Virus record (IMG/VR): IMGVR_UViG_3300046786_000301
Coordinates: 1 to 50,403 of that record
Source of the DNA: a virus
Taxonomy: Duplodnaviria > Caudoviricetes
Reading direction: 5' to 3' (one strand)
Length of the DNA stretch: 50,403 nt
Below, piece by piece: positions 2,323-41,883 of this stretch (the stretch's first letter is position 1; the number at the start of each line of letters is the position of its first letter). The position numbers and the translations under genes are program-made. The notes beneath the pieces are model-generated. The model searched no databases. It saw nothing but the letters and a program-made list of their open reading frames with translations, and was not told the DNA's origin.

Positions 2323-2401
2323 TACAGCTTGGGCTGCTTGTATTCCTAAATATGTAGTGCTCGCATATGAAACACTAGACAAGTTAAATGGGGTAGCATA
2401 A
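2312..2401 (+). CDS. small hypothetical protein (29 aa)
   Basis: GGAGG SD and GTG start; fills the gap exactly, and its TAA overlaps the next start (TAATA). Confidence 0.45.
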   Translation: MGVNTAWAACIPKYVVLAYETLDKLNGVA

Positions 2402-2853
2402 TAACAACAATTGCAGCTAGCATCTCATTAGGTGCCATTGCGGGTGACAGACAATACACATATGGTGGTACCACCAAATTCTTAGGTGCTCCTAAGGTTA
2501 TTCAAATTGCAGACTCCCTCTCTAAGGAAATGTTTGGAGTACCCAAGACACTCATAGGCTTTGCCGGTAATGCAGATGTATGGGGACAGGTACAAGCATT
2601 CTTTGCTGACCCAACTAGAAAGCTTCCTAAGCTAAAGAACATTGAATTTCTGATGCTTAATAAGAACGGAATCTACCATGCTACAAACATGGAAAATTGG
2701 GTTCTACTTAACGAGAAGCATTTTGCCATTGGTAGTGGTATGAGCTTTGCCATGGCAGCCATGGCGTCTGGGAAGACTCCTATTGAAGCATGTAAGGTAG
2801 CTAGTAAGTATGATGTACTCACTGGCCTAGGATATAAAGAGCTATCTTTGTAA
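2401..2853 (+). CDS. HslV/proteasome-beta-like Ntn protease, ATA start
   Basis: Extending the 2530 ORF upstream gives (ATA)-TTIAASISLGAIAGDRQYT; C-terminal AIGSG..FA.AAM..G..P.EA...A...D..TG; N-terminal Thr nucleophile pattern. Confidence 0.75.
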   Translation: MTTIAASISLGAIAGDRQYTYGGTTKFLGAPKVIQIADSLSKEMFGVPKTLIGFAGNADVWGQVQAFFADPTRKLPKLKNIEFLMLNKNGIYHATNMENWVLLNEKHFAIGSGMSFAMAAMASGKTPIEACKVASKYDVLTGLGYKELSL

Positions 2854-2860
2854 TGTCAAT

Positions 2861-2900
2861 AAAAAAAGCCCCTTGGCTCATGCCTTGGGGCTTTTCTTTT
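2861..2900. terminator. bidirectional intrinsic terminator between the convergent arms
   Basis: AAAAAAAGCCCC...GGGGCTTTTCTTTT stem flanked by A and T tracts; a second small hairpin AGCCTT-GGGA-AAGGCT is adjacent. Confidence 0.85.
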
Positions 2901-2914
2901 AGCCTTGGGAAAGG

Positions 2915-2953
2915 CTACTTCTTTTTCTTACCACCACGGTTACCGCATGCCAT
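2915..2953 (-). CDS. 12-aa basic micropeptide MACGNRGGKKKK
   Basis: GGAGG SD 6 nt before the ATG, directly after the endolysin stop and before the terminator. Confidence 0.5.
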   Translation of the reverse strand: MACGNRGGKKKK

Positions 2954-2954
2954 G

Positions 2955-3485
2955 CTATTCCTCCAAAGGTATTACTTCTATAGCTCTCTGTAAGAGCTTA
3001 TATCTATCAGGATAGCCATTAAGACCACCATTAATGCACTTAGTAAGGTCTTGGAACAAGTTAGCATCACACAGCTTATTAAGACTGTGCTCATTCCAAA
3101 ACCACCCAGCACTCCTAGCAGCCCATTTAGGCTCTGCTAACATCTCAGGACTATCCCATAGAGGAAGGTCCAAATCAAACCCACACATTATATAGTTGTT
3201 CTTGCCAGTGATCTGAATAAGACCCCTGCCTTTGAACTTTACCCCATCTCCCTTAGCAGTGTTTCCAAGGTCCTTACGGCCCTCGTAGGCTGCTCCAGAG
3301 GCTATCTCTTCTACATATCGGAGTTGTCCAGATTCATGCCCGATTTGGGCCAGGAACATCCTAATTCTCTGTGGCGTATTTATGTTGTAAATAGCCATAG
3401 TGTCTTGAATGTGTCCTAGGAACCTGTCAATGCGTTCCTCTGAACACCCCTTGTAGATGGCTCGTAGTTGTTCTTTAGTTACCAT
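2955..3485 (-). CDS. glycoside hydrolase family 19 endolysin
   Basis: FLAQIGHES, YEGRKDLGN, FKGRGLIQITG..NY, SAGWFW, INGGLNG..DR motifs. Confidence 0.92.
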   Translation of the reverse strand: MVTKEQLRAIYKGCSEERIDRFLGHIQDTMAIYNINTPQRIRMFLAQIGHESGQLRYVEEIASGAAYEGRKDLGNTAKGDGVKFKGRGLIQITGKNNYIMCGFDLDLPLWDSPEMLAEPKWAARSAGWFWNEHSLNKLCDANLFQDLTKCINGGLNGYPDRYKLLQRAIEVIPLEE

Positions 3486-9769: not shown

Positions 9770-9777
9770 ACTATTCC

Positions 9778-10188: not shown

Positions 10189-10427
10189 TACCCAATGCGC
10201 CAGTTTATACCATCAGAGTACACAGGTATAACTATACTACCACCACCAGCTACTATAGAATAGAAAGCAGACGATGAGGCATCAGTAACAAGCCTACGCT
10301 GCCCTAAAAAGACAGATGAAGCTGCTGGTAATAGGGCTACAGGTGAGGAATTGTAAACAACGGTATTAACGTCATTAAGCCACTCCTGAGCTATAATAGT
10401 CCCAGAAGTAAAAGTAGTTGAGGCCAT
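10188..10427 (-). CDS. small virion protein (79 aa)
   Basis: I.QEWLNDVN N-terminal motif resembles the tailspike N-terminus (INADWLNGIN); C-terminal PVYSDGINW. Confidence 0.65.
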   Translation of the reverse strand: MASTTFTSGTIIAQEWLNDVNTVVYNSSPVALLPAASSVFLGQRRLVTDASSSAFYSIVAGGGSIVIPVYSDGINWRIG

Positions 10428-11893
10428 TAGGTTCTTCCTTTATTAATAGTAACCTGGAATTTCTGAATACGCATTGGGTAGTTGTCAGTGTATGTGAGTT
10501 TAACAATACGCTGTCTAAAACTACCAAGTCTACAATATGATGGCAAGTCTTGATTCATATTAATTGAATAGTTACCATAGAAACTTTGGAAATCATCGTC
10601 AGATAAGGATATAGTAACATTGCTATTAGCAGGAGGCCTATCCCCTACAATTGAGAGCCTACTCATAGTCTTTCTGTTCATAGTTCCAAAATCAGCAGCC
10701 TCTGACATAATGGTTACAGTGAAGTTTGTTCCATTATCTTGGTATAGGCTATTGTCAAACTTATACAGAGCATTACTACTAGGGATGGAGAACACAGTGA
10801 TGTTACCAGCATTTGACACAATGGTAGAAGCAGTGCTTAGTGGAAAACTAGACGTTTGCTGATAGGCCCATTTACTCCAGAATTTCTCATTAATGTCATA
10901 GACAAAGGTTCTAGCACCACCAGTAACTAGGTAAAAAGTGTGACCTAGATTTACTACGACATAACCAGTAATTGGATAGTCGGAAGCAGCTAAGGATGCA
11001 AAGTATCTACGAGAAGTATCACTGCCTACTTCTTCAATGTTGAAGTCCTGTAGCTTGAAAACATCTACAGCATTATTGACATTGTACCCAATGTAGTAGA
11101 TGGCATTACCAGCTTTAGCTAGTCCGCCAATATACCCGTTTATTTTAACAGGAGTATCATTACGCTTGAATGGGCTTCCAGTAGCTACACCTGCATCCCA
11201 GAAATACTCAATAGTGGAGCTTCCAAATACTACAAGGTAATTATTTAGTTTCTCTACATCTAGTATAAGGTCCCCCTCCATCTCGGCGTCAATAACATTA
11301 CCTGCTGTCCACAGCATAGGATCATTCAAATCGCTATTGTAGATGGAGGCTGTTGTGGATTTAACCAGTACTAAATAACCGTCAATAAAGACAGGCTTAG
11401 GAATGTGCGGTACTGGTAGGTCCGCAGCAACGCAGGCTGTAACCACTCCTGCTGTATCAATCTTTACTAGCGTAGTACCGTCTGTGCCAATAAGCACAAC
11501 TACTTCATCATCATAAAGGAAGGTAGTAAAACCAACCTTAGATGTTCCTGTAGTAAATACAGCAGCACAAGATATAGTTGCACCAGAAGTAATGTTATAT
11601 AGGTAAACATTAGTATCAATTGCGTATGCAAAAAAGCCAGCATCTTTCCAGTAATATGACCCCCTAATCGTTCCTGAAATAGGGGGAGTTATGTATGTTC
11701 CAGAGCCAGCTCTCTTATAAGCAAAAGTTCTTAAGTCACCAATGCGCTTGTCTTTAATAACCTCAATAAAGCCATTGACAAAGATTTCATCTTTTAATCC
11801 TAGCGGGTCATTCTGTCTAGAAGTAACCTCTCGAGTAATGGAGATTTCATCCTGACTATATGTATCCCCTGTTGGGGTTTTAGAATAAGCCAA
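10427..11893 (-). CDS. P22 gp10-like packaged-DNA stabilisation / tail hub protein
   Basis: 488 aa beta-rich; FIDGY, FGSSTIEYFWDAG...PF, SDD...G..RLGSFRQR motifs; TTG start. Confidence 0.8.
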   Translation of the reverse strand: MAYSKTPTGDTYSQDEISITREVTSRQNDPLGLKDEIFVNGFIEVIKDKRIGDLRTFAYKRAGSGTYITPPISGTIRGSYYWKDAGFFAYAIDTNVYLYNITSGATISCAAVFTTGTSKVGFTTFLYDDEVVVLIGTDGTTLVKIDTAGVVTACVAADLPVPHIPKPVFIDGYLVLVKSTTASIYNSDLNDPMLWTAGNVIDAEMEGDLILDVEKLNNYLVVFGSSTIEYFWDAGVATGSPFKRNDTPVKINGYIGGLAKAGNAIYYIGYNVNNAVDVFKLQDFNIEEVGSDTSRRYFASLAASDYPITGYVVVNLGHTFYLVTGGARTFVYDINEKFWSKWAYQQTSSFPLSTASTIVSNAGNITVFSIPSSNALYKFDNSLYQDNGTNFTVTIMSEAADFGTMNRKTMSRLSIVGDRPPANSNVTISLSDDDFQSFYGNYSINMNQDLPSYCRLGSFRQRIVKLTYTDNYPMRIQKFQVTINKGRT

Positions 11894-16825: not shown

Positions 16826-16827
16826 AA

Positions 16828-19916: not shown

Positions 19917-20690
19917 TTAACTACGTTCCTTGACGGCCTTAAGGGCAGCAAGGTATTTTTCTTTGGTAAGGGTGCCACTACGGACCAGCGTACCCATAAC
20001 GGTACGCTCTTGTTCTGTTAGAGAGCCTTCGATGCTTACACTACGTTGCCCACCACCAGAAGCTCCTGAATTAACAGGAGCTGCATTTTCCTTATTTGAA
20101 TTAACAAACTTGCTAGGAAATTCCTTCTTCACAGCTTGTGCGACTTGCTTGAGTACATCGGCAGGTGGAATACCCCTAGCTGCTAGTTCAGTGCCAAAGT
20201 CATCAGCAAACTTACGCATATAGCTTGTGGACTCATACCACCTATTCTGGTTCTTCCAGGCAGTGAACTCTGGATGTTCAGAAGCTTCTTGAACAATTGG
20301 ACTATCCTTAACTGCCTTGATAGATTCTACTTGCTTTTCAACAACCTTGATTTCATCATCAAGTTGGTCAAAGCGATCACCGTCTCCATTTGATAGAGCG
20401 TCTTTGCGCTCCTTCTTTAGAGTTGACAATGCTCGCTCAAACTCTGATTCACGTACAGTGGTATAGTGGATTTTAAGAGCTTCTAGAGCCTTTCTAACCT
20501 CTTTAATCTCACGACTTTGGTGAGAAATCTTGTCGAACAGGGGCTGTCTACGGACAAATTCTTTGGCATCAATAAACTCTGTCTCATCACCATCAAATTC
20601 GTCCTTAGGACGCCAGCCCATCTCTAGGGCCTTTTGTTCAATCTCTGATACTTGAGAAACCTCTTGTTCTGTCTTAAGTTCTTCACTCAT
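19917..20690 (-). CDS. putative scaffolding protein (257 aa)
   Basis: A..MGWRPK.EF...F.DA.EFV motif, acidic coiled coil, position. Confidence 0.7.
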   Translation of the reverse strand: MSEELKTEQEVSQVSEIEQKALEMGWRPKDEFDGDETEFIDAKEFVRRQPLFDKISHQSREIKEVRKALEALKIHYTTVRESEFERALSTLKKERKDALSNGDGDRFDQLDDEIKVVEKQVESIKAVKDSPIVQEASEHPEFTAWKNQNRWYESTSYMRKFADDFGTELAARGIPPADVLKQVAQAVKKEFPSKFVNSNKENAAPVNSGASGGGQRSVSIEGSLTEQERTVMGTLVRSGTLTKEKYLAALKAVKERS

Positions 20691-21009
20691 TTACATCTCC
20701 AAATACACAAATAATGTCTTCATCATTGATTACTAGGTAAACCTCGTCATCAAGTGGGTCTTGTACAAACTTACCACCAAACTTAGCAAAACCAATGGTG
20801 TTGCCTATTTTAACACTTCCTAAATAGTCTTCATGACACTTAGGACCAATCTGTAATACTACGCCTTTATCCACATTAATCTGTTCTTTACGTTCAGATG
20901 TTTCAGTGAGGATAATGCCAGCTCGTTGAGCAGAGGCAAACACCTTATCATGTTCCTGAATCTTATGTGGCTTAATTAGGATTCTACATCCTGTTACAGT
21001 AACACTCAT
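20683..21009 (-). CDS. GroES-like co-chaperonin
   Basis: RILIKP...GIIL...G.VLQIGP...VKIG..I.F.KFGG...YLVINDEDI cpn10 signature. Confidence 0.85.
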   Translation of the reverse strand: MSVTVTGCRILIKPHKIQEHDKVFASAQRAGIILTETSERKEQINVDKGVVLQIGPKCHEDYLGSVKIGNTIGFAKFGGKFVQDPLDDEVYLVINDEDIICVFGDVNE

Positions 21010-23203: not shown

Positions 23204-24671
23204 TGCGTCCTGAGTTGGCACCACCTGAGGATTCGAGTTCAAATTCATATTCATCTTCATCCATTTCTTGTTTAGTAGGGGCCTCAATCATTCGGTCTAA
23301 TAGTAGTCCAAGATAAGCAAAAGCATCCACTTGGTCATCATGCTTTCCACGAGGGAAAGTCAGACATTCATCCTCAAAGGTAGCATACCAATCAGCTTCC
23401 TTATCAAAACGTACACCATGGGCACGCATACGAGCCTGCATTACACGGGCTCTTGTTATCTTATCTTTACCCGCAGGCTTTAGCTTTTCAATAGACGGGA
23501 AGATGTTGGAGCTTAGCATCTCTTCCCGTAGGAAAGGACCAATGGCCTTAGATACTTGCATCTCTTCAATACCAAAAGCTTCTGGCTTATAATGTTGTTC
23601 TAGAGCTAAGATGGTGTCTACAATTTCTCTACCATCCAACCGTTCCCTAATAACATCCTTGATGTAAATGAGTTTGTTCTCATCCACAGCCGCCACTACG
23701 AAAGCGGAAAAGTCAGCCGTTTCCTCTTGCGAGATGGCTAAGTCCGCAGTAATGTAATAGCGTAAAGCACCACTGTTCTTTGGATCAGGAAGGAAATCTA
23801 CCTTCTTGAAAAAACTCATCCCCTCATCAATTGGGATGTTTAGATATTCCATAGAGTAAACGTCTGGGATACCTTGAGAGATATAGTCGTTTCTTAGGTC
23901 TACAAAGTAGGCTTTATCAAATCTATTGGCCCATAGTATCTTTGTGAAGTCACTGTTGTGGGCTCTATATTTATAACTCTTCCAGGCTCTGCGCTTGGTA
24001 GTCCATTGCTTGAGTTCCTCTGTGATGGTTCCCTTTTCGTATGGCTTTGGCATCACAGATTCCAGCATTGAATCACTATGAAGAATGGTTCCTACATAAC
24101 GTACAATTCCATTGATAGACCTACAAGGTAGGAGAGCGCCCATGAACCAACGCCTAAACTTAGCACGCCGATCCTTATTCATTACAATTTCATCGTTCTC
24201 AAGGTCATCACAGATAATGAGATCAGGACGCTTGTTATTCCATTTAAGACCACGAACCTTCTGCTCAGAACCCTTGGCCTGAATACGGAACATATGCCCA
24301 TCTTCACAGACTACAATTACATCATCCTCGGAGTCCTTGATGAAATCTTTAATCTTGAATAGGGTGCGTAGTTGGTCATTGTCTGAGAACTCCTTCTTCA
24401 TGTCTCCTAGAAACTGTACAGCCTGGGCCACAGTGTCGGAGACAATGATGGCATAGCTACGTTCTCTGAAACAGAGTTGAGCCATGGTCCATCCAAAAGT
24501 GAGAGCTGTACTTTTTGCATGTCCCCGAGGAGCTGCAATGGCTACTAGAGGGTGTCTATCGCAGAAATGTTTCCACCACTCGTAATGACATTCTGGACTC
24601 TCTACAGCAGCATCGAAGTTCTTTTGAAGAAGGCTGCTTACGAATCCTTGTACTGTGTCTGCGGTTATCAA
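23184..24671 (-). CDS. terL: terminase large subunit
   Basis: APRGHAKST Walker A, RPDLIICDDLE Walker B, GTILH, ADLA, FPRGKHDDQVDA nuclease motifs; TTG start. Confidence 0.95.
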   Translation of the reverse strand: MITADTVQGFVSSLLQKNFDAAVESPECHYEWWKHFCDRHPLVAIAAPRGHAKSTALTFGWTMAQLCFRERSYAIIVSDTVAQAVQFLGDMKKEFSDNDQLRTLFKIKDFIKDSEDDVIVVCEDGHMFRIQAKGSEQKVRGLKWNNKRPDLIICDDLENDEIVMNKDRRAKFRRWFMGALLPCRSINGIVRYVGTILHSDSMLESVMPKPYEKGTITEELKQWTTKRRAWKSYKYRAHNSDFTKILWANRFDKAYFVDLRNDYISQGIPDVYSMEYLNIPIDEGMSFFKKVDFLPDPKNSGALRYYITADLAISQEETADFSAFVVAAVDENKLIYIKDVIRERLDGREIVDTILALEQHYKPEAFGIEEMQVSKAIGPFLREEMLSSNIFPSIEKLKPAGKDKITRARVMQARMRAHGVRFDKEADWYATFEDECLTFPRGKHDDQVDAFAYLGLLLDRMIEAPTKQEMDEDEYEFELESSGGANSGRSAITGY

Positions 24672-28307: not shown

Positions 28308-29141
28308 ATGAATATACTACACAGAGATACAGGACGAGTCCTGTTTACAGTAAGTGGTGAAAACCTTAGCGGGGCTGACCTTAGCGGGGCTGACCTTAGA
28401 GGGGCTGACCTTAGCAAGGCCTACCTTAGCGGGGCCTACCTTAGCAAGGCCTACCTTAGCGGGGCCAACCTTAGCGGGGCTGACCTTAGAGGGGCTGACC
28501 TTAGCGGGGCCTACCTTAGCAAGGCCTACCTTAGCGAGGCCAACCTTAGCAAGGCCTACCTTAGCGGGGCCTACCTTAGCAAGGCCTACCTTAGCGAGGC
28601 CAACCTTAGCAAGGCCAACCTTAGCGGGGCCTACCTTAGCGGGGCCAACCTTAGCGAGGCCAACCTTAGCGAGGCCAATCTTAGAGGGGCCATCCTTAGC
28701 TGGGCTGACCTTAGCGGGGCCAACCTTAGCGAGGCCAACCTTAGCGAGGCCAACCTTAGCGAGGCCAATCTTAGAGGGGCCATCCTTAGCTGGGCTGACC
28801 TTAGCGAGGCCCTTAATATTCCATCTATTCCTCACACAGTAATCACTCCTGAAGGTGAGTTAACTGTTTACAAGAAACTAAAGGAAGGGGTGGCTACTCT
28901 TTTAGTCCCAAAGAATGCCGCCAGATGTTCTGCAACGGGCAGGAGGTGTCGCGCAGAGTATGCTAAAGTTTTAGAACTTCCATGCGGGGTATTCATTGGA
29001 CATTCAAAGCATGACTCTTCGTTTACATATAAAGTAGGTGATATTGTGAGGCCCACTAAGCCCTTTGAAAAGAACCGCTGGATCGAGTGTGCCCCAGGCA
29101 TACACTTCTTTCTTACACGTGAGGAGGCTGAAAATTATTAA
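28308..29141 (+). CDS. pentapeptide-repeat protein with DUF5758-like C-terminal domain
   Basis: 30 A(D/N/Y)L(S/R)x repeats, then P.GE...YKK...L.VP..A.R..ATGR.CRAE.A.V...Y.VG..V....F...RW.EC..GIHFF.TREEA..Y. Confidence 0.88.
   Translation: MNILHRDTGRVLFTVSGENLSGADLSGADLRGADLSKAYLSGAYLSKAYLSGANLSGADLRGADLSGAYLSKAYLSEANLSKAYLSGAYLSKAYLSEANLSKANLSGAYLSGANLSEANLSEANLRGAILSWADLSGANLSEANLSEANLSEANLRGAILSWADLSEALNIPSIPHTVITPEGELTVYKKLKEGVATLLVPKNAARCSATGRRCRAEYAKVLELPCGVFIGHSKHDSSFTYKVGDIVRPTKPFEKNRWIECAPGIHFFLTREEAENY
28362..28811 (+). repeat. 30 x 15-bp tandem repeat (core CCTTAGC)
   Basis: Directly visible; encodes the pentapeptide repeats. Confidence 0.95.
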
Positions 29142-29328
29142 TGGCGTTAACATCCCTGCTGCTGACAATCATGGCAGGGCATTCCCATTCAACCAATCAG
29201 AACAGCAATATCTTGGACCTGCTTTGGTAGGAGGAAAGCTCTACCGCATGATGGTGTGGCTGAATGTTTCTAAAGACGGTCGATCATACGTTCGAGTTAC
29301 ATTTGAGGAACCAATTGATGGGGAATAA
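29134..29328 (+). CDS. small beta-rich protein resembling DUF736-like ssDNA-binding proteins; ATT start likely
   Basis: GAGGAGG 6 nt before ATT ATT AAT GGC; Y.G...V.GK.Y....W...SKDG.SY....F pattern. The track's TTG at 29065 lies deep inside the upstream gene. Confidence 0.6.
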   Translation: MINGVNIPAADNHGRAFPFNQSEQQYLGPALVGGKLYRMMVWLNVSKDGRSYVRVTFEEPIDGE

Positions 29329-29762
29329 TGAACATCCGTGAAGCCCTCATACAGCAACAGCCTATCCTTGCCCTGCAACGTGCTTCGGCAGATGAAATAG
29401 CTGGGTTGGATGCTGTTGTCCGTGAACTTCTTAAGAAGCTTAAGGTGCTCAGAAAGGCAAGAAAGGGGAAAGGAATGAAACTCTCTGATGCAAGCTGGAT
29501 TGCCCCATTGCTGCAAGCTGTTGCAGATGGCCAGAAGATTCAGATATACTGTGAAGAGGATGGACGGTGGTCTGACGCCACTACTAACATTATCTTTAAT
29601 AGGGGTCAAGAATGCTATCGAATAAATTTTGGGGTGTTGAAATATCGTCTGTATCTACGGAAACACGGTAATAGCTATTACGTGGTGGCCAAGCATGACC
29701 AGCCTGAGAAAACGCCTGGATTTGTCAAGTGGTTATGCGATTGGAAAGAGGTAGAAGTGTGA
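29328..29762 (+). CDS. hypothetical protein (144 aa)
   Basis: TAATG coupling; A.ADG.KIQ...W.D...YRI and FVKWL.DW motifs. Confidence 0.7.
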   Translation: MNIREALIQQQPILALQRASADEIAGLDAVVRELLKKLKVLRKARKGKGMKLSDASWIAPLLQAVADGQKIQIYCEEDGRWSDATTNIIFNRGQECYRINFGVLKYRLYLRKHGNSYYVVAKHDQPEKTPGFVKWLCDWKEVEV

Positions 29763-29783
29763 AAATTACTGTTAAGGACATTA

Positions 29784-30421: not shown

Positions 30422-30430
30422 TAAGGATAT

Positions 30431-30598: not shown

Positions 30599-30599
30599 T

Positions 30600-30800: not shown

Positions 30801-30806
30801 GGCCAT

Positions 30807-31118: not shown

Positions 31119-31126
31119 GGACATTA

Positions 31127-31787: not shown

Positions 31788-32071
31788 ATAGGTTTGGATT
31801 TGTTCTTCTCCCTGAGCGTGGAAATCGCCGGGAATTCTTTCTGAGTAACAATGCTGGTTGGGCTGTTCATTCTGACCACTCTGATGCAAGAAAAGCCCCT
31901 GCCGCCGTGTGGTTTGATACAGCCCAACGTCGTGACCTAGCAATGAATGAGGCTGCCACCACATGGCCAGGAAATATTTTCTGCCCTGTGGAAGTTACTA
32001 ATGGAATTAAGTGTGTTCCCGGCCCCCTGGCCAACTACAACATCAATGAACGAGGAGTGTTGCCCCGATGA
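31784..32071 (+). CDS. hypothetical protein (95 aa)
   Basis: GGAG SD; ATGA coupling. Confidence 0.65.
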   Translation: MNRFGFVLLPERGNRREFFLSNNAGWAVHSDHSDARKAPAAVWFDTAQRRDLAMNEAATTWPGNIFCPVEVTNGIKCVPGPLANYNINERGVLPR

Positions 32072-32694
32072 ATTTGTATTCTGGCATGTACGATAGTTTC
32101 CACCCACTTGACATTTTCTTCCCTAATGCGGGACAAGTAGTGGCTCGTGAGCCTAGCGATTTACAAGGCCCCGGTATCCTCATCATCCATGGCGGGGAAG
32201 ACATTAGCCCATCGCTATACAACAAAGGCCGATCACGACGAACCTATGCCGATGAGGTACCAAGCTATCGGGATAAAGCAGAGTGGGCTCTCATTCAGGA
32301 GGCTATCAAGCAGAAAATCTTTATCTTTGGCATTTGCCGAGGTGCTCAGATGCTCTGTGCTGCCTCAGGGGGCTATCTCATTCAGGATGTAACCAACCAT
32401 GCTGGCTCAGGCCACATGGTGTACACTAACAAGGGTAAGTTTCGGGTGAACAGCCTGCACCATCAAATGCAAGCACCTTGGGATGTGGAACACCAGATAT
32501 TAGCTGTCAGTGAACCTCTTAGCAAGCATTTCCTGGATGTGGATAATGATATTAAGGTGCCTAATGAGCCAGAGGCGGTATACTATCCCACCATTAATGG
32601 TCTTGGTGTACAGTGGCACCCTGAGATGATGTATGAAAATACTAACGCAAACTTGTGGATCAAAGAAACTTTGAAGGAGTATGTCCATGAATAA
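32068..32694 (+). CDS. class I glutamine amidotransferase / peptidase C26 (gamma-glutamyl hydrolase-like)
   Basis: GGEDISPSLY, RD..E, GICRGAQ, VNSLHHQ, GVQWHPE. Confidence 0.9.
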   Translation: MNLYSGMYDSFHPLDIFFPNAGQVVAREPSDLQGPGILIIHGGEDISPSLYNKGRSRRTYADEVPSYRDKAEWALIQEAIKQKIFIFGICRGAQMLCAASGGYLIQDVTNHAGSGHMVYTNKGKFRVNSLHHQMQAPWDVEHQILAVSEPLSKHFLDVDNDIKVPNEPEAVYYPTINGLGVQWHPEMMYENTNANLWIKETLKEYVHE

Positions 32695-33346
32695 ACTTGC
32701 TTGTATGGTTGACTATCCTGATAATTCGGGTTGTATTGCCCATGTAGACAGCATGTATTCTCAAGGGTACATTTCCAACTGTTGTGGGGCATGGTCCACC
32801 ACAAACCTAGCAGATTGGAAGCGTGTTTCCACAGGCATTACTGTGTACATAGGCCCCGAAGATGAGGAACTTCCTGAGGATGATGAGTGGAATAGACACA
32901 CTAAGCTGAAAGGCTTCGATGGTGACTTTATTTACATTAAGGAGTTGCTGAAGGGGTATGAAGTAGAGTACAATGAGTTTGGGGATGATGTTACGGAGAA
33001 CACATATCCGTTCCCTCAAGAAGCAGAACGTGATTACTACGCCTACTACAATGGTTTGAAGAACCCTAAGGAAACTTCATACTGCTCCGTTCATTTGGCT
33101 TCAGGGTGGAAAACTCCTCGGTACACTGAGGGTCTTACAAAAATACTTAAGAATCACAAGCTGGCTTTCTTCATTGTTACTGCTGATCAATTTCAGAAGG
33201 AGGAGATATTTAAATATGGTATTGAACTGATGGACAGGATGCCTGATTTCTGGAGGGCTAAGAGCTTTGCACAGAATGGCAACTACCCTGACGCAAAACC
33301 CAACCTTATGCTCATCATTAAGGAGATTAACCATGAGCAAGTTTAA
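32681..33346 (+). CDS. hypothetical protein (221 aa)
   Basis: Coupled ORF inside the amidoligase cluster; SNCCGA motif. Confidence 0.7.
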   Translation: MSMNKLACMVDYPDNSGCIAHVDSMYSQGYISNCCGAWSTTNLADWKRVSTGITVYIGPEDEELPEDDEWNRHTKLKGFDGDFIYIKELLKGYEVEYNEFGDDVTENTYPFPQEAERDYYAYYNGLKNPKETSYCSVHLASGWKTPRYTEGLTKILKNHKLAFFIVTADQFQKEEIFKYGIELMDRMPDFWRAKSFAQNGNYPDAKPNLMLIIKEINHEQV

Positions 33347-34121
33347 ACTCGGATGTGATCCTGAGATTTTTCTGGCTGACGCCGCCGGTGTGTTGCGTAG
33401 CTCCATTGGCCGAATTGGCGGATCAAAGGAGATGCCGATTCCACTCCCCTTGGGGGATGGCTATGCCGTGCAGGAAGACAATGTGGCTGTTGAGTTTAAT
33501 ACTCCTGCTGCTAGTTCCCGTGAAGCATGGGATAATTCCATTGCTTCCACTGTGGAATTCTTGGAAAACCATGTGCGAGAGAAGTATGGTTTCCATTTCT
33601 CCACTTTGTCCGCAGGCCTGTTCAACCCTGAAGAACTGGCTGATCCACGTGCTTTGGAATTTGGCTGTGATCCCGATTTCAATGTGTGGACTGGTAAGCA
33701 GAATCCTCGCCCGAAGGCTGTAGAAGCCACCCTGCGTAGCTGTGGTGGCCATGTCCATGTGGGCTATCAATTCAAGAGTGGTACGGAGGCTATGCGACTA
33801 CTTAAGCTCATGGACTTGCACCTCGGAGTAGGGTCGATCATTATAGACGAGGGCCAACTGCGTAAGCAACTCTATGGCAAGGCCGGGGCTTTCCGCACCA
33901 AGCCCTATGGGATTGAGTATCGTACCCTTAGCAACTTCTGGATTTTCGATAAGTCGCTTCGTAATTGGGTTTGGGACAACACTACAAAAGCAATGGAAGC
34001 ATTGTCAACAGACTTTGATATTGACAGTCTCCAAAAGCCAATTACCGAGGCCATTAATAGGAATAACAAGGCCCTTGCTATGGAACTCATAGGCACCTAC
34101 AACATTGGGATGCCTGCGTAA
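33333..34121 (+). CDS. phiEco32-like COOH-NH2 ligase type 2
   Basis: LGCDPEIF, IGG.K..P, QEDNV..EFN, FGCDPD.N.W, RSCGGHVHVG, R..LYG.AG..R.KPYG.EYRTLSNFW. Confidence 0.9.
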   Translation: MSKFKLGCDPEIFLADAAGVLRSSIGRIGGSKEMPIPLPLGDGYAVQEDNVAVEFNTPAASSREAWDNSIASTVEFLENHVREKYGFHFSTLSAGLFNPEELADPRALEFGCDPDFNVWTGKQNPRPKAVEATLRSCGGHVHVGYQFKSGTEAMRLLKLMDLHLGVGSIIIDEGQLRKQLYGKAGAFRTKPYGIEYRTLSNFWIFDKSLRNWVWDNTTKAMEALSTDFDIDSLQKPITEAINRNNKALAMELIGTYNIGMPA

Positions 34122-34696
34122 TGAGAGATACTTGTTCTAGAGGCTCTATTCGAGACTTCAGGCAGCGCTACCAGGGCACCATTGGCTCTTTCATCAAAGA
34201 TAGTGGGGACAAGATGTTCGTTTGGATTACCGAAGTCACCGATAGGCAGGTGGAATTCCAAGATACTAATGGAAATACCTACACCGCTATCCATGATAAT
34301 GGTGTAACATTCGAGTTTACTCAGGTTCCTTTGGGCTGGTTCAATAGCTCCAAAGGCCCTCTGTTTGTGTGTCGTAGGCCTGCTAGGCAATATCAGCGAG
34401 GCATTTCCCCGGGCAATACTTTCATAATTGGAGTAAATGGGAGTACCATTAGTGTCAACTTGGAAACAATAGCAGACATTTATACCTACTCGGAGAAATA
34501 TTCTCCAACTATGATGGCTTGGGCATTGAGTAAACACTTTGCCTATAATAACAATCATTTCTATTTCTATAACACTGTCATTGGTACTATTGACCAAAAG
34601 ACTAGTGTCATTAAGCTAAAGACAAACTTATATGTACAAGAGGTTTCAGATTGTGTCAAACGTAATGGGCTTCCCTTTACCGTGGAGGTTGCATGA
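34121..34696 (+). CDS. hypothetical protein (191 aa)
   Basis: R.P.RQY.RGI motif; coupled ORF. Confidence 0.7.
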   Translation: MRDTCSRGSIRDFRQRYQGTIGSFIKDSGDKMFVWITEVTDRQVEFQDTNGNTYTAIHDNGVTFEFTQVPLGWFNSSKGPLFVCRRPARQYQRGISPGNTFIIGVNGSTISVNLETIADIYTYSEKYSPTMMAWALSKHFAYNNNHFYFYNTVIGTIDQKTSVIKLKTNLYVQEVSDCVKRNGLPFTVEVA

Positions 34697-35751
34697 CTAT
34701 TGCTAAAGATATTGGTCTAAATATTCCAACTCCATATGTCTTGAAGAAGCTCCTTGTAGAGCCTGTTATTGGTGCTGACCCAGACCTCATGTATGGTGTG
34801 GAATTGGAGATTGAGAACCTAAATCCTGAGGTGTCTAAGGGAGACTTCTGCGTAGCAGGAACTGTGTTCCATGAGGATGGAAGCCTGCGTAACAACGGCG
34901 GAGAGTATGTCACTAAGCCCATGAAGCTACGTGAGTTGCAATATGTGCTCAATCAGTTCTTCAGGAAGAACCAGTTTAATGAGGATAACTACTCCGAGCG
35001 TTGCTCTGTCCATGTTCATGCCAATGTGGGCGATATGGAATGGGAGCAGGTGAAGACTCTGATACTTGTCTACCAGGTGTTTGAGCGTAGCCTATTCAGT
35101 TTCATTGGAGGGGAACGAGACAAGAACATCTTTTGTGTCCCTCTGTATGACACCCAGCTAACTCAGAACCTAATAGATCGTAAGGGCTCAGACGTTGCTG
35201 GTAAGTGGAAAAGCTGGGAGAAGTACACAGCATTGAATTTGCTACCTATCTTCTCTCAAACCACTATAGAGTTTCGCCACATGGGTGGCACCTGTGACCT
35301 TAATAGGATTATGTTGTGGTGCAACATCATTGGATGCTTGTTTGCTTTTGCTAAGCGAGAGTCCTTCGAGGAGGCTTCCAAGTATTTCCTGTCTCTGAAC
35401 ACTACCAGCGCCTATAAGGAGGCTGTGTTCCGTGTGTTTGGTGAGTGGTCGTATGTCTTGTTGTCTCTGCCAACTCATGAGCAAGATATGGAAGATGGTG
35501 TACTAACTGCCAAGTATGCTTGTGGCGATAAGGTTGTAAATAAGACTCATATTTGGCTCGGCACTGCCGCCACCATGGATGCTGTTATAGAGGCTGGGCG
35601 ACTCATACCGACGACGAGGTGGCCGTATCAACCTCCAATTATAGACAACCAAACTCGGTGGATTAGGGATGAAATACTAAATGAGCAGAATGAAATAACT
35701 GTGGGACGACTTGATGCATGGTTAACTAACCAAGATGAGAGAATTGTCTAA
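34693..35751 (+). CDS. putative amidoligase (Amidoligase_2)
   Basis: GVELEIE, DGSLR...EYV, S.HVH.N, KY.ALN, TIEFRH. Confidence 0.88.
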   Translation: MTIAKDIGLNIPTPYVLKKLLVEPVIGADPDLMYGVELEIENLNPEVSKGDFCVAGTVFHEDGSLRNNGGEYVTKPMKLRELQYVLNQFFRKNQFNEDNYSERCSVHVHANVGDMEWEQVKTLILVYQVFERSLFSFIGGERDKNIFCVPLYDTQLTQNLIDRKGSDVAGKWKSWEKYTALNLLPIFSQTTIEFRHMGGTCDLNRIMLWCNIIGCLFAFAKRESFEEASKYFLSLNTTSAYKEAVFRVFGEWSYVLLSLPTHEQDMEDGVLTAKYACGDKVVNKTHIWLGTAATMDAVIEAGRLIPTTRWPYQPPIIDNQTRWIRDEILNEQNEITVGRLDAWLTNQDERIV

Positions 35752-36995
35752 TGTGTGGCCTCGTCGGTCTTATTACTGGAGCTAAAAATGGCTTTGACTA
35801 TCCAGAGACTAAGATGTTTCGTGATATGCTCTACATGGACGCTATGCGGGGCACAGATGCCACTGGCGTCATGTATGGCACCAACCTGAACAATGTGCAT
35901 GTACACAAGGCTGCAATGCCTTCCTGGAACTTTATGGGCACTAAGGAATGGGGTGATACTGAAACTGTTTTGACTAGCAAAGGTAAATGGGCCTTTGGTC
36001 ATAACCGTGCTGCCACCCGTGGTGACAAGGGTGCTGACAAGAATGCTCATCCGTTTGTTGTTGATGACAAAATTATCCTGATGCAGAATGGCACTTATCG
36101 TGGTAGCCATAAGCACCATAAGGATGTGGAGGTGGACACTGAGGCATGTGCTCATGTTATCCTTGAGTCTGAGTCTATTGAGAAAGCTTTGCAAAGCATT
36201 AATGCTGCTTATGCTTTCATCTGGTATGATGTTGAGAAGGAGACCATTAATGTTATTAGGAATGAAGAGCGGCCTCTGTACATTGGTTACTTGAAGAATG
36301 GGGGTATTGCCTTTGCCTCTGAGAAATACCTACTCATGGCTGCTGCTGAACGAAATAGTGTGGAGCTCAAACGAGAGCCCTACATGATTATGGATGGGCA
36401 GCTATGTTCCTATAACTTTAGTGAAGATGAGTTTAAGGAGGAGTATGAAACTGTTGATGGTAAGTTCCGACAGGTTTTTCCATTCCAGGCTACTCGGGCA
36501 ACTGGCGAGGAGGTTTACACGGGGAATGTGAAGCTTTTGCCGAGTACTACGGTTATTAACCACCCCCGTAGTAATAAGCATGATCGCATTGCAATTTTTG
36601 ATGCTATTAACTATCTACAACATGGCTTGGGTGCTAGCCGTACTGAGGAAATTGTCAAGTATTTGGAATCTTTCTATCTAGACCCTGCTAATCGAAATAC
36701 CAAATATACTATTGAAGGTATTGACTATGTAAAGATTAGGGAGATGGATGCCTCTGATGACCAATATTACATCTTTGGAACTATCTGCTCTGACGATTAT
36801 CTAAATGGTGAGTTGGTTGTGTGGACTATTCAAGGAGAGAGCGAGTCCCGTGTCATGCACTATACTAGCAGCTTCTTCCAAGGCTACATCAACCACCTGT
36901 GCCGCAAGACTATAAATCATGGAACCCTCACCTGTTTCATCATGAAAGATATTGAAGTAGTGTGTATATTACCGGAGAACTCTTATGCGCAATAA
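35751..36995 (+). CDS. class II (Ntn) glutamine amidotransferase
   Basis: MCGLVG, RG.DATG, GHNRAATRG, NAHPF, VDTE, RN.ERPL, FASE. Confidence 0.92.
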   Translation: MCGLVGLITGAKNGFDYPETKMFRDMLYMDAMRGTDATGVMYGTNLNNVHVHKAAMPSWNFMGTKEWGDTETVLTSKGKWAFGHNRAATRGDKGADKNAHPFVVDDKIILMQNGTYRGSHKHHKDVEVDTEACAHVILESESIEKALQSINAAYAFIWYDVEKETINVIRNEERPLYIGYLKNGGIAFASEKYLLMAAAERNSVELKREPYMIMDGQLCSYNFSEDEFKEEYETVDGKFRQVFPFQATRATGEEVYTGNVKLLPSTTVINHPRSNKHDRIAIFDAINYLQHGLGASRTEEIVKYLESFYLDPANRNTKYTIEGIDYVKIREMDASDDQYYIFGTICSDDYLNGELVVWTIQGESESRVMHYTSSFFQGYINHLCRKTINHGTLTCFIMKDIEVVCILPENSYAQ

Positions 36996-37698
36996 GCTTT
37001 TCATTGCTGTTAATCCTGTAGGCTCTGGCTTTGCCAAAGCCTTGCAAGCAGGACTATCAGTTAAGGGCATTAAGGCCCTTCGAGTCGATAACGAGCGCGG
37101 AATGCAGCTATGGCTTAATGGCCGCTATGTATTCTTTGTTACTCAGAAAACTCTCAACAAGGTGGAGCAATTCCATGCATTCAATCAAGCCGGAGTCTCT
37201 TGCCCTAAGTACACTACAACAAGTGACGGAGCTAAGGAACTCGGCGTCAAAACTCTATTTGCAAGGACTCTTATCTCCAGCACAGGCGGACGAGGTATTG
37301 TTGAGTTTGACACTGATACGGAAAACTATCCAAGGGCTCCACTCTACACTGAGTACATCCCCAAGAAAGCCGAGTATCGAATCCACGTCTTCGAGGGAAA
37401 AGTAATTGATAGGCAACAGAAGAAAAAAAAGCGGGGTTTCGAGGAAGATAGGAACACTCGTGTTAGTAACCTTAGTAATGGTTATGTTTATACTCGGGAT
37501 GCTATTGTATTGCCTGAAAATATTGAAGCGTTGGCTGTCAAGGCAGTGGAAGCTTGCCGATACAGCTATGGAGCGGTAGATATTATTTACAACGAGAAGC
37601 GTAACCAGTGCTATGTGCTTGAGGTCAACTCAAGACCGGGCCTGATGGGCACTACGCTGGGCAATTACATTAATGCTATTAAGGAGTATGTGATATAA
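36985..37698 (+). CDS. ATP-grasp ligase (RimK/glutathione synthetase-like)
   Basis: GGRGI, EYRIHVF, YGAVDI, LEVNSRPG. Confidence 0.88.
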   Translation: MRNKLFIAVNPVGSGFAKALQAGLSVKGIKALRVDNERGMQLWLNGRYVFFVTQKTLNKVEQFHAFNQAGVSCPKYTTTSDGAKELGVKTLFARTLISSTGGRGIVEFDTDTENYPRAPLYTEYIPKKAEYRIHVFEGKVIDRQQKKKKRGFEEDRNTRVSNLSNGYVYTRDAIVLPENIEALAVKAVEACRYSYGAVDIIYNEKRNQCYVLEVNSRPGLMGTTLGNYINAIKEYVI

Positions 37699-37847
37699 AT
37701 AAATACCTGTACCTATTTCTGTTTGCTAGTATTAATTGGATTGATGCTACAGTGTTGCTTCTATCCTTTGGATTATACGACCCATCATTAGCATTCAGAT
37801 TTGCACCTTGGAAAACTATCTGGTTCAGAAATATCCTGGGGACATGA
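37695..37847 (+). CDS. small hydrophobic protein (50 aa), ATA start
   Basis: AAGGAG 8 nt upstream; ATA overlaps the upstream TAA (ATAA); its stop overlaps the next ATG. Confidence 0.5.
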   Translation: MNKYLYLFLFASINWIDATVLLLSFGLYDPSLAFRFAPWKTIWFRNILGT

Positions 37848-39244: not shown

Positions 39245-39252
39245 GGAACTTA

Positions 39253-39999
39253 ATGCGCATAACCTATGGCCCATGCCCAAGGTGTAGGGAACGAGGAAAA
39301 GACAGTCGTGGAGACAATCTTGTATCCTACCCAGATAACGGAAGCCACTGCTTCTCGTGTGGCTACCATGTAAATCCTGTGGGGTTTAGAGCCCTTATAA
39401 AGAAGGAAATCTATGACACTAAAGTCTTACCTTACGACTACACCAGTGAAGTGGAACCAGCCGGATGGAAATGGCTTCTCCAGTGGGGACTCCCCTACTC
39501 CTATTGGAAACCATACGTCGGCTATTCTAGTGCCTTTGGCAGAGTGGTCATCAAAGTTGGGAATCCAAGTAATCCTGCCTTCTCCATTGGAAGGCTTGTT
39601 GAGCCAGACAAAGAAGGTAGGAAGTGGTATGTATGGGGTGACTGTCATTCCCACGCTGAACTTCTGCGACCAATGGCCCTACCCACCGTGGGACAGCCAT
39701 TAGAGGGGTGCTGCACTGTTTTAGTGGAAGATGTGGTGAGTTGCCATAAGGTAGCTCAGGTAGCAGAATGTATGGCCTTGTTTGGAACAGAGCTTCATAA
39801 GGCCCACATCTATGCCCTTCGTGACGGTACTACTAGACCTATTGTTCTGTGGTTGGACGAGGATCAGAGAGGTTATGTGCAAAAGAAAGCATTAAGGATA
39901 CAGATGCTGACAAACAGGCCTGTAATCGTTGTACATACCAAAAAGGACCCAAAGTGTCTCCATGTTAAGGAAATTAATGAAACAATTAAAAGTATCTGA
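39253..39999 (+). CDS. DNA primase (Zn-finger + TOPRIM)
   Basis: CPRC...DNL..Y.D...HCFSCGY; VLVED..S..K, WLD.D, DPK. Confidence 0.88.
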   Translation: MRITYGPCPRCRERGKDSRGDNLVSYPDNGSHCFSCGYHVNPVGFRALIKKEIYDTKVLPYDYTSEVEPAGWKWLLQWGLPYSYWKPYVGYSSAFGRVVIKVGNPSNPAFSIGRLVEPDKEGRKWYVWGDCHSHAELLRPMALPTVGQPLEGCCTVLVEDVVSCHKVAQVAECMALFGTELHKAHIYALRDGTTRPIVLWLDEDQRGYVQKKALRIQMLTNRPVIVVHTKKDPKCLHVKEINETIKSI

Positions 40000-40342
40000 A
40001 GCCACCCAGCTGCAACTGGACTGGTTGGTGGCGCGGTGTGAGGATGAGCCAATCCGCATCTCAGATGGCGTTGTGCGCTTCAACATGTCGCAATTCACGG
40101 ACGACTACAACCGCTATGCACCCTCGACCGACTGGGCACAGGGTGGACCTATCATTGAGCGGGAGGGACTTGCGCCGGATGCACGGCGAGATGTCAATAA
40201 CAACACCATAGAATGGGAGTGCTACAATTGGAGGGGGGATGGTAACTACATTACAGGACCAACCTGCCTGATTGCCGCCATGCGCTGCTACGTAATCGGC
40301 AAGCTGGGCGACGTGGTGGAGGTTCCAGAGGAGTTCAGATGA
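39977..40342 (+). CDS. DUF2591/NinX-like phage protein
   Basis: LDWLVA, PSTDWAQGGPIIERE, GPT.LIAAMRCYV...LG..VEVP. Confidence 0.8.
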   Translation: MKQLKVSEATQLQLDWLVARCEDEPIRISDGVVRFNMSQFTDDYNRYAPSTDWAQGGPIIEREGLAPDARRDVNNNTIEWECYNWRGDGNYITGPTCLIAAMRCYVIGKLGDVVEVPEEFR

Positions 40343-40575
40343 GACTGTCTAGTGTGCTACTAGTGGCAGGTCTATTGATGTTTTCCCTGACATGTGGTTG
40401 GTATGCTCACAAACTGGATAAAGAGGGTGTGACAAAGAAAGCACTTGACAACATCTTTGAACTCTGCTACAATTATTCTGTGGTAAGAAAAGAAGATAGG
40501 TTCATAGGATGCTTTCCAATGAGCAATCCAAGCAAAGAAGAACACAAAGAGCTTGACACACTTACAGAAGTGTGA
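40339..40575 (+). CDS. small membrane-anchored protein (78 aa)
   Basis: N-terminal hydrophobic helix; contains two internal promoters. Confidence 0.6.
   Translation: MRLSSVLLVAGLLMFSLTCGWYAHKLDKEGVTKKALDNIFELCYNYSVVRKEDRFIGCFPMSNPSKEEHKELDTLTEV
40445..40473 (+). promoter_or_regulatory. sigma70-type promoter (replication genes, distal)
   Basis: TTGACA-17-TACAAT with extended TG. Confidence 0.7.
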
Positions 40576-40581
40576 TAGACT
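40553..40581 (+). promoter_or_regulatory. sigma70-type promoter (helicase, proximal)
   Basis: TTGACA-17-TAGACT with extended TG, followed by an AT-rich inverted repeat. Confidence 0.7.
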
Positions 40582-40629
40582 AAATATACAATACATATAT
40601 AATATGTATATGTATATAAGGAGTATTAG

Positions 40630-41883
40630 ATTATTTATATACCAGAGCTTTCCTACCTTAAGGTTCTTCTAAGTAAAGAATATTTCCTAAAGTATTTTGA
40701 ATATGTAGATGTTAAATATATTAAAGATTCTTATAGGGAACTGTTCTACCTCTATGAAACCCTTAAGGAACTACACAACTCTGTTGACCGTGACGTAAGC
40801 CTCGATGAGTTGCAGGCCTTCTTCTTCACCAAGTATCCCGACTCCGATAAGGAGTCATATTCAGACCTGTTTAAACGCCTCAGGGGAGAAGAAATTGGTG
40901 GGGATGCGGCAGAGGTACTACTTAAGTCTATTAAGCGCCGCAAGGAGGCTTTAAACCTCTCTGAGACCCTATTCAAGGTGAGCCAGGGTCTGGAGGTTAA
41001 GGAAGGATGGCAAGATGACGCAATGTCCTTCCTACAAAACACGGTCGATCATCAACAAAACTCGGAAGTAAGGCAGGTAACTTCTGATTTGGAACAGCTC
41101 ATTCATGAGACATATCAGGACACAGGTGCTCGTTGGCGTCTTAATTGTCTTAACAAAAGTCTTGGAAGTCTACGTAAGGGAGATTTTGGCTTCATCTTTG
41201 CTAGACCGGAAACAGGCAAGACTACTTTCCTCGCTTCTGAGAGTACAGGCTTCCTTGGTCGCCCTTCGGAGCGTATAGTCTGGTTCAACAACGAGGAACA
41301 AGGTAACAAGGTAATGATTCGCATCTATCAGGCCTATTTTGGTGTGCCTATGGATGTGCTACTAGCTAATGTCAAACGATTCAGAACATCATTTGAAGAT
41401 CAGGTTGGAGACCGATTCCAGCTATATGACTCTGCTACAGTCTCGAGAAGAGAAGTAGAGAGAGTTGTATCGAGAGTTCAGCCAACAATCGTCATATATG
41501 ACCAAATTGACAAGATCAAGGGATTCTCTGCTGACCGAGAGGACCTTCGACTCGGCTCCATCTATCAGTGGGCTAGAGAACTGGCTAAAGGAAATCACGC
41601 TGCCATTGGAGTATGCCAAGCTGACGGAACAGCAGAAGGAGTGCGTTACCTCACTATGGAGCATGTTGCCAATGCTAAGACAGCCAAACAAGCTGAAGCA
41701 GATTGGATTCTTGGGATTGGAAAAGTCCATGATGACAGCCTTCAAAAAGTACGGTATCTAAACATAAGCAAGAATAAGCTGTTCGGAGATACAGACTCCA
41801 TCCCTGAACTTAAGCATGGGCATTTTGAGTGTTTAATTAATGCTCCTGTGGCACGTTATGAAGATGTAGTGACTTATAAATGA
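40630..41883 (+). CDS. DnaB/SF4 replicative helicase, ATT start
   Basis: ARPETGKTT Walker A, FNNEE, YDQIDK, QAD, K.AEAD..LGIG, KNK. The frame is open from ATT 40630 (AAGGAG 6 nt upstream), 60 codons before the track's TTG. Confidence 0.88.
   Translation: MIYIPELSYLKVLLSKEYFLKYFEYVDVKYIKDSYRELFYLYETLKELHNSVDRDVSLDELQAFFFTKYPDSDKESYSDLFKRLRGEEIGGDAAEVLLKSIKRRKEALNLSETLFKVSQGLEVKEGWQDDAMSFLQNTVDHQQNSEVRQVTSDLEQLIHETYQDTGARWRLNCLNKSLGSLRKGDFGFIFARPETGKTTFLASESTGFLGRPSERIVWFNNEEQGNKVMIRIYQAYFGVPMDVLLANVKRFRTSFEDQVGDRFQLYDSATVSRREVERVVSRVQPTIVIYDQIDKIKGFSADREDLRLGSIYQWARELAKGNHAAIGVCQADGTAEGVRYLTMEHVANAKTAKQAEADWILGIGKVHDDSLQKVRYLNISKNKLFGDTDSIPELKHGHFECLINAPVARYEDVVTYK

Follow-up and report, generated by a model that had tools for sequence, protein, structure and literature searches.

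Probable AUH start codons at the replicative helicase and other genes of an environmental Caudoviricetes phage group

Introduction

Weak AUH start codons (AUU, AUA or AUC) are familiar from a handful of bacterial genes. In Escherichia coli, infC, the gene for initiation factor 3 (IF3), starts with AUU and is autoregulated, and IF3 discriminates against AUU, AUA and AUC. The stretch of DNA analyzed here, which we call the window, raises the question of whether a phage uses such codons repeatedly and in essential genes. The window is the complete virus record IMGVR_UViG_3300046786_000301 (Duplodnaviria; Caudoviricetes), 50,403 bases with direct terminal repeats at its ends. The original prediction, made from its letters, placed AUH starts at five open reading frames (ORFs) and proposed either that the phage throttles these proteins or that it loosens the fidelity of initiation in infected cells, for instance through an effect on IF3.

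We find that the observation is partly confirmed: three of the five sites stand, one needs qualification and one lacks support. The three that stand belong to a DnaB-like replicative helicase, an HslV-like peptidase and a small ORF at the 3' end of the portal gene. We consider it probable, from sequence comparison, that their AUH starts are genuine and represent translational attenuation of the infC, pcnB or ccpN kind, used unusually often. In all three genes the protein N-terminus falls on an AUH codon, with no canonical codon (ATG, GTG or TTG) at or upstream of it. Such starts recur among orthologues but are labile, being present in 25 of 76 helicases and 11 of 37 HslV-like genes (one CTG included in each case) and in 5 of 5 small ORFs.

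Results

The replicative helicase

The features at the helicase locus are as follows.

40630 to 41883, plus strand: DnaB-like replicative helicase, 417 codons, start at ATT 40630 or ATT 40633 (PHROG 19, E = 8e-45).
40618 to 40623, plus strand: AAGGAG Shine-Dalgarno (SD) motif of the helicase, 6 nt before ATT 40630 and 9 nt before ATT 40633.
40553 to 40603, plus strand: sigma-70-like promoter matches upstream of the helicase, TTGACA-17-TAGACT and TAGACT-16-TATAAT, by consensus only.

The helicase frame opens at 40630, immediately 3' of a TAG at 40627-29, and the earliest ATG, GTG or TTG in it is TTG 40810, at codon 61. Annotated homologues begin at frame residues 1-4. The start proposed for this gene, with AAGGAG 6 nt upstream, an adjoining stop codon and 60 extra codons, is confirmed. 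By this comparison the 60 N-terminal codons are real protein sequence. Assignment to the DnaB-like family is supported by a P-loop GKT motif that is invariant in the helicase alignment; the Pfam family AAA_25 scores 27.9 bits (cut-off 27) and DnaB_C scores 22.7 bits, under its cut-off of 27. At least 80% of the helicase query is covered by 127 GenBank phage records, among which the best protein matches are 40-46% identical. The promoter-type matches are to be read against their background frequency, since a 3.5-kb scan returned 8 where 6.3 were expected from shuffled sequence.

To assess start usage in this family we used 80 related IMG/VR loci, of which 75 were assessable, giving 76 helicases with the window. 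A canonical codon stands at the conserved x-x-P-E-L N-terminus in 51 of them (ATG in 33, TTG in 10 and GTG in 8). The remaining 25 have no ATG, GTG or TTG at the N-terminus and carry ATA (11), ATT (9), ATC (4) or CTG (1) instead. Because the canonical calls for three loci (L009, L024 and L038) are doubtful, 25 may be an undercount. The near-cognate starts are accompanied by stronger SD sequences: a match of at least 5 nt, counted at 3-12 nt upstream of the start, was found at 21/25 near-cognate starts versus 15/51 canonical ones (Fisher p = 7.7e-6). On a quick maximum-likelihood tree of 70 rows with SH-aLRT (Shimodaira-Hasegawa-like approximate likelihood ratio test) support, from which one row (L057) was dropped, at least 10 start-class changes fall on well-supported branches. 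The window's own clade is near-cognate in 16 of its 27 rows. The pattern extends to a GenBank genome, MW202697 (locus L003), where, in the region 566-706, the deposited annotation begins the helicase at an internal ATG; the conserved N-terminus lies 5' of it, behind AAGGAG, with ATA and ATT codons only.

The HslV-like peptidase

Two features are relevant at the second site.

2401 to 2853, plus strand: HslV-like Ntn peptidase, start ATA 2401, directly before the Thr-Thr nucleophile (PHROG 1040, E = 5e-23).
2297 to 2401, plus strand: short open frame of 34 codons overlapping the 3' end of the ribonucleotide reductase (RNR) gene, with GGAGG 8 nt before GTG 2312; its stop, TAA 2399-2401, overlaps ATA 2401.

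The peptidase frame opens at 2371, and its earliest canonical start, ATG 2530, is codon 54. HslV-family Ntn hydrolases need Thr as the first residue once Met has been removed, which fixes the start of this gene at the codon before Thr-Thr. T2 and T3, the predicted nucleophile, are invariant in the alignment. The gene is present in all five related genomes that we used for orthologue comparison (G001-G005), where it aligns from the Ile-Thr-Thr position, and the proposed ATA start, directly before an invariant Thr-Thr, is confirmed. An alignment search gave 49 loci; the 36 that match from residue 1 make 37 genes with the window. In the 36 loci the codon before Thr-Thr is ATG (18), TTG (5), GTG (3), CTG (1), ATA (8) or ATC (1); the window brings ATA to 9. 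All of these codons are AUG or single-base neighbours of it that support initiation. Four loci have a stop codon immediately 5' of the ATA, which leaves no alternative start.

The TAATA stop-start overlap noted at 2399-2401 is also real, with the correction that its TAA ends the 34-codon frame; the stop codon of RNR is separate, at 2320-22. As a guess, the 34-codon frame may be an upstream ORF (uORF) that couples translation to the peptidase gene. In many relatives the HslV-like start overlaps an upstream stop as NTGA, ATAA or TAATG. Frames of 80-138 codons at loci L105-L148 terminate precisely at the HslV-like start. Some share sequence, in a different reading frame, with the 3' portion of the long gene upstream, and such frames may be real genes or shadows of that gene. 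A single-query protein-pattern search with the HslV-like gene returned no close relative in viral or metagenome contigs and no GenBank phage match, and no Pfam family matched the frame at E <= 0.01.

The small ORF at the portal 3' end

The third site lies in the minus-strand structural block.

21006 to 21203, minus strand: conserved 65-aa ORF, start ATC 21203, or 21200 or 21197, in the -1 frame over the portal stop.
21209 to 21214, minus strand: AAGGAG motif for the small ORF, within the portal 3' end, with ATC codons at 5, 8 and 11 nt.

The open frame runs from 21212 to 21006 on the minus strand, overlaps the portal's last codons in the -1 frame and ends on the ATG of a GroES-like gene. Its first canonical codon is GTG 21122, codon 31. 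Homologues were found in G001, G002, G004 and locus L154, and in 5/5 sequences ATC or ATT stands 5-8 nt after AAGGAG(G) or GAGGAGG, in agreement with the ATC start at 21203 or 21200 first proposed for the gene next to the portal. In G001 and G004 the entire frame is free of ATG, GTG and TTG. The invariant residues W11, T17 and R18 all precede the window's only GTG, and T17 and R18 fall past the portal stop. Inspection by eye revealed no common X XXY YYZ slippery heptamer in the five portal overlaps. ESM Atlas matches of the protein were unnamed viral clusters with scores < 0.9, giving no lead, and the window's small ORFs matched no Pfam family at E <= 0.01. The GroES-like co-chaperonin gene (20683-21009; PHROG 3188, E = 4e-11) lies between the small ORF and a scaffold-like gene.

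The sites at 29134 and 37695

The two remaining candidates are shorter frames.

29134 to 29328, plus strand: 64-aa ORF, candidate starts ATT 29134 and 29137, 6 and 9 nt after GAGGAGG; alternative start GTG 29119 without SD.
37695 to 37847, plus strand: 50-codon frame, ATA with AAGGAG 8 nt upstream, overlapping the ATA-TAA end of the upstream gene; unsupported as a gene.

At the first of these the GAGGAGG (29121-27) lies 6 nt before ATT 29134 as claimed, but the accompanying claim that no canonical start is nearby was partly wrong, as GTG 29119 is in frame just upstream, together with CTG 29128. The public gene call picks this GTG and gives 69 aa. A wastewater-metagenome contig is informative here, being ~87% identical to the window over 29022-29364. 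Among its listed differences, 11/13 between 29187 and 29262 are at third codon positions of the ATT frame, 13/15 located 5' of 29130 are at third positions of the preceding gene's frame, and none falls between 29130 and 29186. The change T29120A destroys GTG 29119, and T29224C destroys the next in-frame TTG. The third-position differences and the loss of both canonical codons point to coding from near 29134, with ATT as the sole candidate left in the relative. We conclude from this comparison that the frame is probably coding from near 29134 and may be a fourth AUH-start gene; GTG 29119 is a possible start in the window itself. We detected no homologue in the five relatives or in viral or metagenome contigs, and the protein collection returned only the window's own 69-aa call. 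A pentapeptide-repeat protein with ADLSG/ANLSE-type units is encoded at 28308-29141, where assemblies of other runs break or pile up.

At 37695, the AAGGAG 8 nt upstream of ATA and the ATAA overlap are as described, but the status of the frame as a gene is unsupported, with no homologue in the five relatives or in viral or metagenome contigs. The frame falls in a stretch that relatives lack or that does not align with them: at the one junction inspected, in G004, the zinc-ribbon gene lies directly 3' of the ATP-grasp gene, and a related contig skips 37629-38000.

Start usage across the genome

In a homology-anchored survey, 3/54 conserved ORFs of the window, ~5%, need a non-canonical start. 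A provisional list of 65 genes has ATG in 48, TTG in 12, GTG in 2 and AUH in 3; several TTG entries arise from choosing the longest ORF and are artefacts. Five TTG starts had been noted beside the AUH sites, and these hold up against orthologues.

655 to 2322, plus strand: RNR, TTG start; at or beside the position, 4 orthologues carry ATG and 1 carries TTG.
23184 to 24671, minus strand: large terminase (TerL), TTG start right after a stop codon; orthologues ATG 4/4.
10427 to 11893, minus strand: "tail hub" gene (PHROG "head closure Hc3"), TTG 7 nt after AAGGAG; orthologues ATG 5/5.
42422 to 43606, plus strand: N-terminal part of DNA polymerase A (PolA-N), TTG start; orthologues ATG, GTG, TTG, or ATA/ATT (G005).
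45210 to 45737, plus strand: SSB-like gene, TTG 45210, 6 nt after AAGGA; the orthologue Met aligns here and not at TTG 45111.

AUH codons also occupy the position of the orthologues' Met codon in the relatives, at PolA-N (ATA/ATT in G005), the zinc-ribbon gene (ATT in G003) and the exonuclease gene (ATT in G004), and the HslV-like gene of G002 has CTG there. In total, AUH starts occur in at least six gene families among relatives, and each of the six genomes compared has at least one gene starting with AUH or CTG. Their distribution is uneven. Among genes flanking the helicase in the same loci, a canonical start is missing in 8/77 PolA-N genes, 0/46 primase genes and 0/11 phosphoesterase genes.

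An SD motif followed by an AUH codon was considered as stand-alone evidence and rejected. AGGAG is frequent inside genes: 22 of 77 listed coding-strand copies precede the canonical start of a frame of at least 40 codons, and most of the remaining listed copies have no candidate start downstream. An SD with an AUH codon therefore proves nothing alone, and it is the orthologues that lend support.

Logan contigs of two sequencing runs are identical to the window across 21203, 29134, 37695 and 40630. These two runs, which match the full window, are probably the source sample and so are not independent of it. The sequencing runs recorded as containing the window stretch include no RNA run, and a DNA-level search of GenBank phages found no close relative to the window. 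Genome bins that hold helicase relatives are labelled Pedobacter, Saccharibacteria, Pseudomonadota, Ktedonobacterales, archaea and others. We rejected naming a host from these labels: the bins span many phyla, and the contigs are most likely phage sequences binned wrongly, so that no host can be named.

Other features of the genome

PHROG annotation of 67 ORFs names RNR, the HslV-family peptidase and an endolysin; a minus-strand structural block whose members include the GroES-like gene, portal, large terminase and holin; primase, the DnaB-like helicase, DNA polymerase A in pieces, dCMP deaminase, endonuclease VII, exonuclease and MazG; and a cluster of glutamine amidotransferase, amidoligase and ATP-grasp genes. 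This cluster, at 32068-37698, comprises glutamine amidotransferase, COOH-NH2 ligase, amidoligase, aminotransferase and RimK-like ATP-grasp genes and is kept in 4/5 relatives. The PHROG name of the RimK-like gene is "ribosomal protein S6 glutaminyl transferase".

An interruption at 44035-44805 splits the C-terminal DNA polymerase A gene, with orthologue residues 2-141 at 43612-44034 and 132-230 at 44755-45075. An HNH endonuclease ORF (44180-44749) lies within the interruption, and the group I intron model RF00028 matches at 44404-44768 over its full length, although below threshold (32.7 bits versus a gathering score of 50; E = 3e-6). Upstream of RNR, an HNH-endonuclease-like frame at 299-658 has a sole well-placed start, ATG 395 behind AGGAG, which lies past the His-His of the motif; the frame is either a degenerate homing endonuclease or a further odd start.

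The exonuclease gene (47319-47993) reads MRALIDG, TAG (47340-42), GDMVAF, where the orthologues have MRALIDGDLVAF. It thus carries a 6-nt insertion with an in-frame TAG just past the conserved Asp-Gly motif. The gene could be broken, could start at ATG 47349 or could be translated by readthrough; TAG serves as terminator in 3/65 provisional genes. Between the polymerase gene and the SSB-like gene, ARAGORN calls a tRNA-Gly(UCC) at 45113-45188. The call is doubtful: visual inspection shows an acceptor stem of 7 bp without mismatch and an encoded CCA, but Rfam gave no tRNA over this interval at the gathering score nor at E <= 1. It is in any case irrelevant to initiation.

Discussion

We propose that AUH codons in this phage group act as weak starts that tune expression. 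The SD at functional spacing that attenuation calls for is present at the helicase and the small ORF and absent at the HslV-like ATA. At the first two genes, a strong SD 5-8 nt upstream would place the ribosome, and at the HslV-like gene a stop-start overlap with the upstream frame would do so. The initiator formylmethionyl-tRNA would then pair with AUH by two of three bases, and the outcome would be a low initiation rate, disfavoured further by IF3. Such initiation rates and dependence on IF3 are what we infer; the location of the starts, their conservation, their association with SD sequences and their gene-specificity are observed. The weak codon would set the expression level, so that a hexameric helicase, a protease and a minor head-assembly protein stay scarce. 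Across the group, ATG, GTG, TTG, ATA, ATT, ATC and CTG appear to interchange at one codon while SD strength moves oppositely, as if a strong SD with a weak codon and a weak SD with ATG were interchangeable. It is the gene-specific distribution together with this inverse relation to the SD that leads us to favour tuning of expression level. The throttling half of the original prediction fits these data, as AUH starts cluster in particular families and the weak helicase starts are those paired with stronger SD sequences.

Several points weigh against attenuation. The starts are predicted from sequence comparison, and the frequent start-class changes on the helicase tree mean that conservation of AUH is not strict; these codons could be close to neutral instead of selected. 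At RNR, TerL and the hub gene the window has TTG in place of the relatives' ATG, a hint of a trend across the whole genome in addition to gene-specific tuning. In the HslV-like family the association with SD sequences is weak (5/10 versus 3/25, p = 0.027). The window's own HslV-like ATA has no SD match of at least 4 nt, and translation of this gene may be very low or may depend on the putative uORF.

Given the frequent start switches and the additional TTG starts of the window, the host may instead be permissive: AUH and CUG would initiate efficiently, and the start codon would be nearly neutral, drifting without regulatory purpose. At least 10 start-class changes in 70 helicases, AUH in at least six families and the TTG of the window's RNR, TerL and hub genes are all compatible with this. 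We nevertheless think it unlikely, given a gene-specificity so strong that none of 46 primases and none of 11 phosphoesterases in the same loci departs from canonical starts, and given that near-cognate starts with stronger SD sequences suggest a cost of the weak codon that needs compensation. The bins of the relatives, labelled with many phyla, also allow no host to be inferred. There is a small chance that the phage itself lowers fidelity during infection, for example via IF3 or the 30S subunit, switching on AUH genes in infected cells. The occurrence of AUH- or CTG-start genes in each of the six compared genomes would fit such a switch, as would an ATP-grasp gene in the amidoligase cluster that PHROG names after the S6 modifier RimK (a likeness of name only), and IF3 level affects non-canonical initiation, re-initiation and M13 propagation (PMC2268962). 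However, none of the 67 ORFs annotated with PHROG is named as a translation initiation factor, ARAGORN and Rfam gave no credible tRNA, and ATG is kept by 48/65 provisional genes. The AUH genes are spread over replication, auxiliary and late head-assembly modules with no single temporal class, and SD compensation would be needless under relaxed fidelity. The infection-dependent switch that the original prediction derived from relaxed fidelity or IF3 targeting is thus without support. A broader possibility, which we regard as improbable, is that fidelity is relaxed in infection across this freshwater and wastewater phage group, either through a phage factor that affects IF3 or the 30S subunit or through a permissive host lineage, with AUH and CUG belonging to the normal repertoire. 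If this were true, ~5% of conserved genes would currently be mis-annotated, and a phage or host factor that relaxes fidelity would be a new viral route to translation reprogramming.

Simpler explanations concern the annotation and the decoding of the genes. Gene callers pick canonical codons, as the helicase of MW202697 (annotated from an internal ATG) and the public call at GTG 29119 illustrate, and the true starts might be TTG 40810, ATG 2530 and GTG 21122, or the genes might be broken or misassembled. We consider this very unlikely. The N-terminal stretches are conserved at the protein level, initiation at ATG 2530 would cost the HslV-like peptidase its nucleophile Thr, and two small-ORF homologues lack any canonical codon. 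The pattern also repeats in dozens of independent assemblies, and re-assembled contigs, from runs that are probably of the source sample, agree with the window. It is scarcely credible, finally, that the frames are reached by recoding, with a -1 frameshift that fuses portal and small ORF or stop readthrough into the helicase or HslV-like gene. The small ORF does lie in the portal's -1 frame and overlaps the last 17-35 portal codons in all homologues, and the genome has other oddities, namely the in-frame TAG in the exonuclease gene and the candidate group I intron in the polymerase gene. Yet no conserved slippery heptamer was seen by eye 5' of the conserved EFQEW segment; what the homologues share is a strong SD with AUH 5-8 nt after it. 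The helicase TAG is preceded by only nine codons up to a TAA, none of them canonical, and the frame 5' of the HslV-like TGA is closed by a TAA within 7 codons.

The AUH starts have consequences beyond this genome. Across a large group of environmental phages they occur repeatedly, including at an essential gene of replication, and apparently trade off against SD strength. The group therefore offers a natural dataset, replicated many times, for studying the joint effect of start codon and SD on the translation level. Standard gene callers accept ATG, GTG and TTG alone, with the result that AUH genes are truncated or missed. Examples are the helicase of MW202697, a small ORF that is uncallable in two genomes, and an HslV-like gene that would be called minus its nucleophile. 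Anchoring starts on orthologue N-termini would reveal such cases cheaply.

The closest parallels are bacterial. Like infC, whose initiation is inefficient and sensitive to IF3 level, the phage genes have an AUU or AUA start of the sort disfavoured by IF3, but their start class is labile among relatives and not fixed. An autoregulatory loop of the infC type was considered and set aside, the phage products being a helicase, a peptidase and a small protein; as the AUH genes do not encode IF3, no feedback loop is evident. E. coli pcnB reportedly starts with AUU as well, a finding attributed to Binns and Masters in 2002. There too an inefficient start codon limits the level of an enzyme; pcnB, however, is one chromosomal gene, while in the phage group a single genome has several such genes, and as much as a third of a family is affected.

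In Staphylococcus aureus, AUU and AUA starts with an extended SD reach ~10-30% of the AUG level and are interpreted as attenuation (PMC13009471). S. aureus and Bacillus subtilis ccpN (AUA) and cvfC1 (AUU) resemble the phage genes in combining an AUH start with a strong, well-spaced SD, and differ in being bacterial regulators mapped by Ribo-RET (retapamulin-based ribosome profiling), with four non-canonical sites reported genome-wide (PMC13009471). The phage genes serve replication, proteolysis and head assembly, make up ~5% of conserved ORFs and are known here from their sequence. A parallel also exists in termination-reinitiation and stop-start coupling at ATGA or TAATG, which the NTGA, ATAA and TAATG overlaps of HslV-like genes in relatives and the TAATA of the window recall; high IF3 inhibits both non-canonical initiation and re-initiation (PMC2268962). 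The window differs in that the frame ending at 2401 is a 34-codon open frame and not a known gene, and AUA re-initiation is putative.

Among phages, a study of the well-annotated SPP1 (PMC6316719) gives AUG for 72, UUG for 3 and GUG for 5 of 80 ORFs, and AUH for none. SPP1 likewise has a compact genome with an SD at most genes (PMC6316719), whereas the window has AUH in 3/54 conserved ORFs and at least 5 TTG starts. Our literature search, to which subscription journals were mostly closed, returned no paper describing AUH starts as a repeated feature of phage genes. A mechanism of this kind is already known; as far as this search reaches, what is new is its frequency, its use at a replicative helicase and its evolutionary lability.

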